From Candidatus Latescibacterota bacterium (lineage in GTDB: Bacteria > Latescibacterota > UBA2968): a stretch of DNA of 64,000 nt. Within the stretch, counting starts at the first letter, position 1. Each line of letters opens with the position of its first letter. The DNA lies in assembly GCA_965198115.1 (NCBI GenBank), contig OZ240241.1, positions 1,440,001-1,504,000 on the forward strand. The letters run 5' to 3'. Positions 23,983 to 60,138 of the stretch are shown here, piece after piece. The translations under genes and the position numbers were made by a program. Below the pieces are notes generated by a model. The model was not told the DNA's origin. It worked only from the letters and a program-made list of their open reading frames with translations, and ran no database searches.

Positions 23983-24026
23983 CTCAGTGCTCTCAGTGTT
24001 CTCAGTGCTCTCAGTGTTCTCAGTGG
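23983..24026 (+). repeat. 9-bp tandem repeat (CTCAGTGYT)x5
   Basis: ctcagtgct ctcagtgtt ctcagtgct ctcagtgtt ctcagtgg. Confidence 0.9.
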
Positions 24027-24186
24027 CGCTTTCCGGTCGCAAGATACGTCACGGTCGCGATCGTTTCCATCCTGCCCGTCCTGGCGAGAGCCGAAGGGTC
24101 AAGAGCACTTTCCTCCGCCCATTCTTATGTCGATATTCCAGTGTCACTGGAAATTCTCACTGACCGCATTCAGGAGCACATTGTCG

Positions 24187-56126: not shown

Positions 56127-57230
56127 ATGAAAATCACGGACGTGAAATGTTTCCCGTGCTTTCACGGAAGTCGGAACTATTTGTTCGTGAAGGTCGAAAC
56201 GGACGAGGGCATCTACGGAGTCGGCGAATTCGGAATCACGTGGAAGGAACAGGCGGGAATCGGTGCGGTCGAGCACATGAAAACCGACCTCATCGGACAA
56301 GATCCGTTGAACACCGAGTATTTGTGGCAACTCCTGCTGAGGGGCGACTTTTTCCCCGGCGGGCGGATCAACATGGCTGCCCAGAGTGCAATCGATCTCG
56401 CCCTTTGGGACACCAAAGGCAAGGCGCTCGGGCAACCCGTCTACATGCTCCTGGGCGGCAGAATGCGGGATCGAGTCGTCTGCTACAAGGGCATCGGAGG
56501 AAAAACACCGGAAGCAACTGCTGCGGCTGCGAAGGAACGGGTGGCCGAAGGATGGAAATATCTGCGGCTGGGTGTGATGGATCGCGACGGCATCCTCGAA
56601 CCGCCCGTGGCCGTCCGCGAAGCCGTCGGTCCCGACATCGAAATCTGCATCGACGTCCACACGCGTCTCGACACACCCGACACGATTCGGTTGGGGCGGA
56701 AGTTGGAAGCCTACGACCCCTTCTTCATCGAAGATCCACTGAGATGCGAGAATCCGCAAAGCTACCGGCTCGTTAGACAGCAGGTCCCCGTCCCCCTGGC
56801 CATCGGCGAGCACTTTGCCACCAAATGGGAATTCCGTCAGTTGATCGAAGAAGAGCTGCTCGACTACGCCCGGATCGACCTCTGCATAGTGGGAGGGTTG
56901 ACGGAAGGACGTAAGATCGCCAACTGGTGCGAGACGCATTACATCAAAATAGTCCCGCATAACCCCCTCGGACCCGTATCCGCCGCCGCGTGTCTTCACC
57001 TCGACATCGCCACAGACAACTTCGCCGTGCAGGAAGCAGGCCTCGTCGGCAACACCGTGATGACCGATCTCTTTCCCGTGCAGGTCCCCTACGAGTCGGG
57101 TTACCTCCTCGCCCCGACCGGACCCGGTCTTGGCGTAGAGTTCAACGAGGAGGCCACCGCCAAGTATCCCTTCAAACCCCTCCACGGCCCACGGCTACAA
57201 CGAGAGGATGGATCATTCACTAACTGGTAG
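56127..57230 (+). CDS. enolase-superfamily acid-sugar dehydratase (galactonate/mannonate dehydratase-like)
   Basis: IDVHTR, FIEDP, AIGE, PHNPLGP, DGSFTNW. Confidence 0.9.
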   Translation: MKITDVKCFPCFHGSRNYLFVKVETDEGIYGVGEFGITWKEQAGIGAVEHMKTDLIGQDPLNTEYLWQLLLRGDFFPGGRINMAAQSAIDLALWDTKGKALGQPVYMLLGGRMRDRVVCYKGIGGKTPEATAAAAKERVAEGWKYLRLGVMDRDGILEPPVAVREAVGPDIEICIDVHTRLDTPDTIRLGRKLEAYDPFFIEDPLRCENPQSYRLVRQQVPVPLAIGEHFATKWEFRQLIEEELLDYARIDLCIVGGLTEGRKIANWCETHYIKIVPHNPLGPVSAAACLHLDIATDNFAVQEAGLVGNTVMTDLFPVQVPYESGYLLAPTGPGLGVEFNEEATAKYPFKPLHGPRLQREDGSFTNW

Positions 57231-57255
57231 ACTGCGCCACTGAGGACACTGAGAT

Positions 57256-57640
57256 TCACTACCCGCTCCTCAACGATCAGGTCGGCTGAGTAGTCCCCCA
57301 CCACGTGCCCCTTATACCAAACCTTGAGAAGGGCTTGAGAATGGATATCCAAGCCGGCCTCCTGTAGTTCGATACAGAGTGCTCTTTCGTACACAAAACC
57401 ATGCGCTTAATTCCCAAGCGTGGACGGCCGAAGTTGAGGAGCAGGCCTGTGTTGAGTCGCGTAGCCCTCAAATAGTTGAGAAGCTGAGCCTGGTGCACTC
57501 TCCCGATGTGGTCGATCGACTTCAACTCGAGCAGAGACCCTTTCCAAGAAACCGGACCCCAATGTCCGGTTGACGGTGATAGCGCACCCGATGATCTTCT
57601 CAGTCAGCTCGTCGTTCTTGATTTCAGCCAAACGCGCCAT
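57256..57640 (-). pseudogene. GxxExxY-family PD-(D/E)xK-like protein with segments in A-C-B order
   Basis: A: LTEKIIG...GFLERV; C: LLELKS...AQLLNYL...GLLLNFG; B: YERAL...YKG...ADLIVEERV. Confidence 0.85.
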
Positions 57641-57645
57641 CCTTA

Positions 57646-58907
57646 GTACTCCTGTTCTCAAATACGGTGACGTATTCTAAGCAGACTTTGCCAAGGGCGT
57701 ATCGTAGAACCTGAGTTTGTCGATCATCTCCGCGAGATCTGTTCGTGTGAACTTCCATTTGAAGGGTGTGGCGATACGTCCGTAGCGTTCCTGAAAACCG
57801 AGGATTCTTGCCTCAAGCTCTTCGAGCGATGCAAATTCGATAGGTGTCAGAGCCTTGCGTTTGAGGATCGAGAAGTAGATCTCGATCTGATTGAGCCAGC
57901 TTGCGTGGATCGGAAGGTGAACGGGGTGGATGTTTGGCCACTTCCCCTGGATACGGTCGATGCATGTTTGCCCTCGGTGCGAGGAGCCATTATCCACGAT
58001 GAGGTAGACTTTCTTTGCCGAGCAATAGGGTTTCCGGCTCATGATCAGGCTCAGGAGCCGGTTGAAGGGCTCGATACCCGAAGAAGACTCACAGAGACCG
58101 AAGATTCGACCATTGTGCACGTCGAGAGCAGCCAGATAGGCCAGGGCTCCTTTCCGCTCGTATTCGTGTTTCAACGCGTGCCGCTCTGTTCGAGGCTGGC
58201 GGTAGGGTAACGTGCTTGCGAGCTCGTGCTTGAATACTGGTCTTTTCGTCGGCAGAAAGTACATATTCCCTCGGCCCTAAAGGCTTTCCTTGCCATTGGC
58301 GGTGATACAGATCAAGGACTCTACCTGCTTTGGTTTGGAAGTCCGGGTCCCGTGGGAAAATCCAGGAGCGATGATACCAAGGACGAATCGCGTCCTCGTT
58401 CAACCAGCGCCAGACAGTGGCGCCGCTGATCTTGGCAACGAAGCCCCTTTGCACTGCCTCGGCGGCAATCTCGGAACAGCTGGACCGCGAGAGCGGTATC
58501 CCGCTCTCGCTCGGTAGTTCACACGCCAGCGCCTTGATCTGAACGACCACCTGAGGGGGGAAAACCGGGCGGGCGCCCGGGACGAGATCTATCTTCGAGT
58601 CCCGAAAGACGCTCTTCGAAAAAGCGCTTACGCCATTTGCTTACGATCGGACGCGGGACATCCAACCGTTGGGCGATAATCTTGTTGGATAATCCCTCGG
58701 CGGCGAGAAGCACGATTTTCGATCGGATCACTTGATAATACGGTAACGTATATTGTCCAGCCATTCGCTCGAGGTCGACCCGTTCCTTCTCAGACAGTAG
58801 CACCACATAAGGCGAACGTCTTGGCATTGTTCTCCTCCTTTTGAAGGAGAACATAAGCTACAAATAATGTTCAAGACATACGTAATAATGTTTATGAAAC
58901 CATGCAC
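57646..58907 (-). mobile_element. IS630-family IS, copy 2
   Basis: 1262 bp inverted copy of 28625-29886; TA on both flanks. Confidence 0.93.
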
Positions 58908-58968
58908 TAAGTCTCAGTGATCTCAGTGGCTGTCTTTGTCTTTCTATCATAGTCAGAGAGGTGTCCTG

Positions 58969-60138
58969 ATGCAAAGTGTGAGCGTTCCTTGGGCGTGTTG
59001 GTATGGTGAAGAGAAGTTCGAGATGACGTTCCCCGATGAATGGTCCCTCGAAGTGTGCGAAATGAAGGGCGGTCCAGACATCGGGGACGAGGGAATCCGT
59101 GAGGCATTCGCCAACCCGATCGGATCGCCGACCCTCTCCGAGGTCGCGAAGGGCAAGACTTCGGCGGCCATTCTTGTAGACGACCTGACGCGACCCACAC
59201 CGGCGGGGCGACTGATTCCCTACGTCCTCGAGGAGCTCGAAAAGGGCGGGATTCACGAAGACCAGGTGCGCATCATCGGGGCTGTCGCCGCCCACCGTGC
59301 GATGATTCGGGAAGACTTCGTCAAAAAGCTCGGGCAAGACATTGTCGATCGAATGCAGGTCCTCTGTCACAACGCAGACGACAACCTCGACTTTCTCGGC
59401 CACACGAGTCGGGGCATTCCGCTCTGGGTCAATCGCGACCTGATGGCCTGCGAAGTGCGCATCGCCCTCGGCATGATCACACCGCGGGGCGGTATCTTCG
59501 GCGGCGGGTCGAAACTTCTGCTACCGGGCGCGTGCGGCCGTGTGACGATCGCAGCAAACCATCGCTACATTCACGACGGATTCCGTGAGCACCTCGACGA
59601 AGTCGGTCGCATGGCCGGTTTGAGCTTCCTCGTAAATCCCTGTCTTAACCCTGAACGGGAGATCAATGCCGTCGTCACAGGCGACCCGGTCGACGCCTTC
59701 TGGCACGGGGTCGAGATCGGGAAAGAGGTCTACGCCTCACCTTTCCCCGACCGGCCCGACGTGGCAATCTTCAACGCCTGGCCTAAGGACGCCGAATTCA
59801 CCCAGGCGGGCATGGCCATGGTCCCCATACGAGGAGACAACCCACAAAAATTGAAGGACGACACGACCGTCGTCATCGCGACCGCTTCCCCCGAAGGCAT
59901 GGGATTCCATTCCGTTTTCGGACCCGGAGCCGAGCTGCGAGGAAAGCCCACACCCCAACGTTGGCGCACGATCATCTTCTCACCCAACCTCAACAAGTGG
60001 GACGTCCTCCTGTTGTATGGAGAACACGCCGCGTTTTGCAGGACCTGGGACGAGGTCATCGAGGAATTGGAAAAACACCACGGAAAAGACCTAAAAGCCG
60101 CTGTGTTCCCGTATGGGGCAATGCAGTATTGTGAGTGA
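58969..60138 (+). CDS. lactate racemase (LarA) superfamily protein
   Basis: ANPIGS, VDDLTRPTP, AAHR, GGSKLLLPG, ANH, ASPEGMG. Confidence 0.85.
   Translation: MQSVSVPWACWYGEEKFEMTFPDEWSLEVCEMKGGPDIGDEGIREAFANPIGSPTLSEVAKGKTSAAILVDDLTRPTPAGRLIPYVLEELEKGGIHEDQVRIIGAVAAHRAMIREDFVKKLGQDIVDRMQVLCHNADDNLDFLGHTSRGIPLWVNRDLMACEVRIALGMITPRGGIFGGGSKLLLPGACGRVTIAANHRYIHDGFREHLDEVGRMAGLSFLVNPCLNPEREINAVVTGDPVDAFWHGVEIGKEVYASPFPDRPDVAIFNAWPKDAEFTQAGMAMVPIRGDNPQKLKDDTTVVIATASPEGMGFHSVFGPGAELRGKPTPQRWRTIIFSPNLNKWDVLLLYGEHAAFCRTWDEVIEELEKHHGKDLKAAVFPYGAMQYCE

Follow-up and report, generated by a model that had tools for sequence, protein, structure and literature searches.

How does a small nuclease-family gene come to keep all its conserved parts in the wrong order? 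The question is raised by a locus in a 64,000-nt stretch of contig OZ240241.1 from a Candidatus Latescibacterota bacterium (assembly GCA_965198115.1); the whole of this stretch is called the window below. A first-pass annotation, made from the letters of the window, had described a GxxExxY gene lying there in the block order A-C-B between inverted repeats, and had proposed that the swap might record the cut-and-rejoin or circular-intermediate chemistry of a mobile element, or else a reversible off-state. A different reading is preferred here, with a probability of roughly 0.6: an isolated repair accident, guided by microhomology, in a dead cassette, with no programme behind it.

Three blocks of the GxxExxY gene lie in A-C-B order

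On the minus strand, the real order of the DNA is A-C-B followed by GTGAATC (Table 1). When coordinates and translations were read again, the block boundaries, the lengths of 35, 47 and 44 aa and the trailing GTGAATC all agreed with the first description. Each block matches the family models singly, and together they tile PF13366 without a gap (A at model positions 2-26, B at 27-71, C at 73-117); the block-by-block profile match to TIGR04256 runs likewise in A-B-C order (A 1-25, B 26-70, C 72-116). Blocks B and C pass the cut-off on their own, while A passes Pfam's only. In the intact-order orthologue of a sister-genus genome (G010), the blocks correspond to residues 5-30 (A), 31-74 (B) and 75-121 (C). 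All six possible orders were scored against a profile built from 31 relatives. Only A-B-C gave one domain, at 158 bits, and the order found in the DNA gave three, so that the claim that reordering restores one protein is upheld. The A-C-B block swap is real. It had also been held that essentially nothing was lost or duplicated. This stands as far as the model is concerned, which is tiled fully and with no doubling, but not to the letter: counted from its ATG to its old TGA, the gene is 385 nt long here versus 381 nt when intact, a net gain of 4 nt. The old TGA does lie beside the terminal repeat, as noted at first, within the B-end junction and 2 nt from the right arm.

Table 1. Positions in the window of the swapped gene, its junctions, the repeat arms and neighbouring features
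Feature	Position	Strand	Remarks
Block A	57536..57640	-	first 35 codons, through GFLERV; carries the Gly and Glu conserved in GxxExxY
Block C	57394..57534	-	last 47 codons; E-L-K and HxAQ...NY...NFG; frame differs from that of A
Block B	57260..57391	-	44 codons from the middle, YERAL to DLIVEERV; carries the invariant Tyr and Asp
Junction A-C	57532..57538	-	GT-CTCT-G, which may be read as a GTG word plus 4 extra letters; frame broken
Junction C-B	57392..57394	-	GTG, both the end of C (TTG TG, Leu-stop) and the Val codon that precedes Tyr in B
Junction B-end	57256..57259	-	GTG + A, containing the old TGA; 2 nt off the right arm
Left (upstream) arm	58912..58930	-	two CACTGAG units with a 9-nt period; 6 nt outside the larA-like start
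Right (downstream) arm	57236..57254	+	begins 6 nt past the dehydratase stop
Further repeat-arm position	about 24000-24030		
IS630-family element	57646..58907	-	1262 bp between left arm and ATG; flanks CTTA / TAAG
Enolase-superfamily (galactonate dehydratase-like) gene	56127..57230	+	flanking gene
LarA-like nickel racemase family gene	58936..60138	+	flanking gene

The swapped gene encodes no intact nuclease

The invariant residues of the family are G23, E28, Y31, D67, E77, K79, Q91, Y95 and F109. Blocks A, B and C are each free of stops and have kept them; the residues of the GxxExxY and D...ELK motifs, which had been expected to be restored by reordering, are all present, though spread across the three blocks (E28 in A, D67 in B, E77 and K79 in C). 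According to PMC3424549, an E/D/E/K set is the usual active site of the PD-(D/E)XK fold, and the function of the GxxExxY family is entered in a table as unknown. The structure of the orthologue from G010, rather than of the window's own gene, was computed. It is predicted to adopt a PD-(D/E)XK fold (pLDDT 88.6) and best matches Cas4 SSO0001 (E 5e-4), lambda exonuclease and Hjc. A single-sequence fold prediction reached a pLDDT of 38, and a search of solved structures by sequence returned weak matches to T7 endonuclease I alone (E 0.17).

Both new internal junctions are out of frame, and one open frame of about 125 aa is not present. Nor does the locus read as a permuted protein, with a single frame and cuts at loops: the frames are broken, and the cuts fall within a helix (28-41) and a strand (74-79) of the model predicted for the orthologue. 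As the predicted active site is divided over three blocks, no single frame can encode the nuclease. The swapped gene is a pseudogene of the GxxExxY family.

The junctions are present in read-derived contigs

An assembly or polishing artefact had to be considered as the source of the A-C-B order. The blocks, at 105-141 nt, approach the length of short reads, and the genome has many small frame breaks, with about 1000 split but in-order junctions. Against this, the raw data assembled independently from k-mers gave identical letters over all three junctions: one 2601-nt Logan contig, at a depth of 6-7, spans 56800-57667 with zero differences. It derives from two runs (X1 and X2) of one sample, which is possibly the source of the assembly itself. 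A second sample from the same study (X3) repeats two of the three junctions, C-B and B-end, which are bridged by two 151-nt contigs with zero differences; the A-C junction lies outside its coverage. The junctions are therefore spanned by read-derived contigs, all three in one sample and two in a second, and the artefact reading is largely refuted, with next to no probability left to it. The contigs of the two samples contain the A-C-B form only, and no joint implying A-B-C was found in those from X1-X3; at a depth of about 6-7, such contigs drop rare variants. None of the RNA runs contained the locus.

The gene lies between repeat arms, with an IS630-family passenger

The two arms form a 19-nt inverted pair, 89% complementary, and their unit ends in GTG on the minus strand. 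The larA-like gene reads away from the left arm. The inverted repeats of the first-pass annotation are thus confirmed, but they are not special to the locus. In the genome of the window (G000), 116 arms of CCACTGAG type were found, versus 1-3 in shuffled controls. Of these, 18 have an inverted partner no more than 600 nt away, above the control maximum; for the other 98 none was found. Many of these arms begin at 8-30 nt from where a long ORF ends. Within CCACTGAG arms, the swapped gene is the sole GxxExxY locus found in this genome. The remaining four (two full-length, two partial) carry periodic arms of other types, in agreement with the predicted association of GxxExxY genes with inverted repeats.

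The site is occupied in some relatives and vacant in another. In three sister-genus genomes (G002, G007 and G010) the same two host genes, dehydratase and larA-like, flank a copy in A-B-C order. The copy in G002 is frameshifted near its end and that in G007 has several stops, so two of the three are broken. In G003 the site is empty, the dehydratase and larA-like genes being about 55 nt apart; this relative is too distant for the ends, or a target duplication, to be mapped. Such presence and absence of a repeat-armed cassette is as the first-pass annotation had supposed. On the evidence of these sequence comparisons, the gene sits in a real repeat-armed cassette, whose movement by its own protein is putative.

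Along the replichores of this one genome, unpaired arms share an orientation, most of them lying on the G-rich strand (83 of 97 for the CCACTGAG type and, for three other types, 40 of 45, 56 of 73 and 23 of 28). Long ORFs of G000, used as a control, are split 2093 versus 2170 between the strands, and paired arms 10 versus 8. The bias suggests, for one genome, a replication-linked step in the gain or loss of arms. No signal was obtained for single-strand folding of the gene region (z -1.1), and a promoter and terminator scan of the locus gave nothing decisive.

The insertion of an IS630-family element just ahead of the ATG, also noted at first, was found again at 57646-58907. A gap of 5 nt separates its end from the start codon, and the element parts the gene from the upstream arm. 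At least 63 full copies of the family, 99.2-100% identical, are present in the genome. The element is a passenger in the cassette. Its transposase might nevertheless have made the breaks, either while inserting 5 nt ahead of the start codon or afterwards: it adjoins the gene, its family is numerous, and the letters TAGTGC at the reconstructed site 2 are also those of the left junction of the element. This match is 6 nt long, however, and the CT(T/A)AG-type target that is near-universal among the copies is absent at all three cut sites. Moreover, the paralogue control, as far as it reaches, showed no swap next to other copies, and the window's copy carries an extra A that breaks its frame. A role of this transposase is very improbable. 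The same extra A in the catalytic frame is carried by 63 of 75 IS630-family copies, the window's included, and is lacking in 12. Flanks of the family read CT(T/A)A and T(A/T)AG, frequently with no plain duplicate. Between 61448 and 63995 the window holds split ISL3-family and DDE_Tnp_1_4 transposase genes, and the region is rich in IS elements.

Junction letters point to joins probably guided by GTG words

Reading along the minus strand, the letters of the junctions are AGG GT CTCT G CTC (A-C), TTT GTG TAC (C-B) and GTA GTG AAT (B-end). The shared GTG reported at first for two junctions is thus found, by sequence, at C-B and B-end. We infer an A-B-C ancestor that would have carried GTG at all three sites (sites 1 to 3). 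If so, an exact exchange of blocks reproduces every letter of the second and third junctions; in the first, CTCT is added, and these four letters account for the net gain of 4 nt. A reading without microhomology, in which 1 nt and 3 nt were duplicated at staggered cuts, also gives +4 nt, and the C-B junction must then supply the conserved Val codon by chance. In 118,962 trials with random triples of cuts in intact family genes, at least three shared letters were found at two junctions in 0.8% and at three junctions in 0.13%. Since random cuts so rarely match, the joins were probably guided by microhomology, provided that the reconstructed ancestor is right. GTG at sites 1 and 2 is a reconstruction because a close intact copy was not found: a DNA search of 41 genomes matched the dehydratase only, and a protein search with block B returned, from 6 candidates, 3 matches, namely the window's own frame and two at 61-62%. 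Among 50 intact genes, GTG occurs at sites 1, 2 and 3 in 7, 0 and 2 respectively, and in none at all three together. The GTG words thus vary across these 50 genes, and conserved recombination sites among the relatives were not found.

On the models and the orthologue alike the block ends meet exactly, as those of independent events would not, and a single episode of cutting and rejoining is therefore indicated. In the preferred account, an ancestral A-B-C gene with GTG at its three sites would have had the B+C stretch looped out through GTG, creating the C-B junction. The looped-out stretch would then have been opened at its middle GTG and resealed, permuted, into the same gap. Equivalently, three breaks may have been misordered on rejoining by Ku-independent end joining, and the 4 nt at the A-C junction may have been gained then or later. 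The genome has no match to Ku. It does have a LigD-like frame of 789 aa (G000:C1:5919645-5921954) with a polymerase part before the ligase part, each half below its family cut-off. Of the earlier suggestion of a cut-and-rejoin reaction or circular intermediate, one part holds, in that loop-out and re-entry fits the letters of the junctions. The other, a regular product of the element, is not supported, as the swap was not found again.

A stepwise route through slippage needs no nuclease. Duplication and loss is a model taken from mitochondrial gene orders. Applied here, tandem duplication of B+C via GTG would give A-B-C-B-C, from which the first B and the second C would be lost, again via GTG. 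Microhomology-mediated tandem duplication has been reported across life, according to PMC13167724, and one locus of the family (L151) has a duplicated C block with an arm. The route demands, on the other hand, two separate deletions that end at the same GTG and at the ends of the duplication with no leftover, and a B+C tandem duplicate, which would contain the same C-B junction, was absent from the pattern matches in GTDB, metagenomes and viruses. Such a sequence of steps is quite unlikely.

No second swap was found in the family

The family was searched for in 168 genomes from the phylum and in three outside groups (36, 31 and 36 genomes). They gave 309 family rows, of which 305, in 269 genomes, were kept after two unpublished genomes had been omitted. 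Among the 305 family matches, listed but for 2 rows of one search, no locus other than the window's was out of order. Apart from the window's locus, 58 partial or split loci were read again in six frames, a few partial rows (duplicates and contig ends) being omitted; 18 were multi-piece, and all of these were in order. A degenerate pattern for the end of C followed by the start of B was also used. It matches the window, its halves match 16 of 31 intact genes, and it sees swaps only within 15 nt of the window's C-B junction. The pattern matched 14 times in GTDB, 46 times in metagenomes and in no viral contig. These 60 matches comprised 47 genes or fragments in normal order (a chance word near the stop), 13 unrelated sequences and no swap. 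From the chance rate, about one to ten thousand family genes were scanned in GTDB, a rough figure that is inflated by words including the stop. Further permuted copies, for which a survey had been suggested, were thus found in neither the family searches (269 genomes) nor the pattern scan, and with the GTG words unconserved the idea of a regular product of the element is not supported.

Swaps were also sought among the other genes of the genome. The 6139 long ORFs yielded 13 candidate loci, and the 2052 short ORFs a single one. Seven candidate regions were opened and proved to be repeat proteins, a CBS-domain pair or tandem paralogues; the remainder were intact frames or neighbouring genes, as judged from coordinates. 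No second swap was found in the genome among genes with close paralogues. In the sensitivity control, 10 of 31 closer queries flagged the locus, and the two in-genome paralogues were too distant to do so.

Because there is neither recurrence nor a conserved site, the accident is favoured over the directed readings. Cassettes of the family decay often, and two of the three relatives' copies at this site are broken in ordinary ways. Some points weigh on the other side. One cut lies at the inner edge of an arm, and the only swap found in the genome lies in a nuclease cassette. An undirected accident predicts neither of these. The GTG of site 2 is present in 0 of 50 intact genes, and the ancestor is a reconstruction.

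The same searches bear on a reversible off-state, unscrambled through GTG words in the manner of ciliate pointers. Three stop-free blocks that retain the invariant residues would suit it, and short repeats at the junctions would in principle permit a precise return. Yet the contigs hold no A-B-C joint (with rare variants dropped at a depth of about 6-7), the GTG words are unconserved, one junction has 4 surplus letters, the IS element also parts the gene from its upstream arm, no recombinase was found in the 13 neighbouring ORFs scanned, and the occurrence is single. This part of the original proposal is not sustained, and an off-state is hardly credible.

Broken family cassettes are common, most of them with internal deletions. 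A locus in another genome (L151, G171:C28) has a full gene and arm followed by a second, diverged C block and arm. Another (L152, G223:C1) has three copies of the N-terminal half within 3.6 kb, one of them inside a frame of 514 aa. An apparent hot spot at the B-C boundary, seen as remnants starting at model positions 78-89, was discarded, the same pile-up being given by short remnants at the detection limit.

The cassette's own nuclease may have made the cuts

The main rival to the accident is that the cassette's own nuclease, predicted to cut beside the arms, cut once at the right arm's inner edge and twice at weak sites in the gene, and that host repair then misordered the pieces. Site 3 is just 2-5 nt from the arm, the arm unit on the minus strand terminates in GTG, and the G010 orthologue has the predicted PD-(D/E)XK fold. 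The unrelated nuclease SsnA cuts single-stranded DNA a few bases from a repeat, according to PMC11893778. In addition, in a remnant from an unrelated genome (L146, G222:C15) the same ESV codon is joined to the right arm: the first 32 codons meet it through a 6-nt match between the ESV codon region and the arm unit. The ESV codon spot can therefore loop out towards the arm. On the other hand, sites 1 and 2 share GTG alone with the arm, and the family has no known activity in the table of PMC3424549. A scar of the L146 type was not seen again in 401 genomes, where its pattern, which requires a GTG codon that roughly one gene in 7 to 10 possesses, gave 7 matches, none of the family. A pile-up of remnants near gene ends is explained by short remnants at the detection limit. 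Cutting by the cassette's nuclease is accordingly possible but unlikely. A stronger form of the idea, that the swap is a frozen record in which the nuclease cut at the arm edge and at arm-like GTG words and a small circle of the gene body re-entered its own gap permuted, is considered improbable.

Comparison with known systems

In layout the cassette resembles the Ssn/SRM system or the TIRtrons, and it is a member of neither. Like Ssn/SRM, as described in PMC11893778, it has a small stand-alone nuclease gene and a repeat with many gene-less copies, and the repeat-proximal cutting by SsnA is a model for site 3. SsnA is, however, a GIY-YIG enzyme, and the present family is PD-(D/E)XK by Pfam and predicted fold, with no GIY-YIG assignment obtained. 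The arms here are arrays of 9-nt period instead of palindromes, and an activity of the cassette's nuclease is putative. With REP/RAYT and TIRtrons it shares a gene bracketed by inverted repeats that form a dispersed family; theirs, according to PMC3733652, are HUH tyrosine transposases, to which the blocks show no such match. From the GxxExxY family itself, whose models TIGR04256 and PF13366 the blocks tile while keeping the invariant G, E, Y, D, E, K, Q, Y and F, the locus differs in its A-C-B order, its broken frames and the absence of a readable intact protein.

Scrambling in ciliates is programmed, genome-wide and reversed each generation through a pointer mechanism. Misordered blocks with short direct matches at the joints are common to scrambled ciliate genes (PMC4684698) and to this gene; here, in contrast, one locus is concerned and no restored form was seen in contigs.

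Microhomology-mediated end joining and multi-break reshuffling leave matched ends, matches of a few nt and some added letters. The matched block ends, 3-nt matches and few added letters of this locus are alike, and what differs is the setting, a same-strand swap of adjacent blocks within a 385-nt bacterial gene. A literature search, covering text outside subscription papers and supplements, found no description of GxxExxY cassettes or of such a swap.

On present evidence, no switch, no regular step of an element and no new rearrangement system is revealed. What the locus provides is a clean, read-supported swap of two blocks in a small bacterial gene, a type of lesion overlooked by annotation, and three concrete sites for testing the protein of an intact relative. 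If the frozen-record reading were true, an undescribed class of mobile element would gain its first cut positions and a circular intermediate from the swap, and the reaction would be linked to the replication fork by the strand bias that the unpaired arms show.
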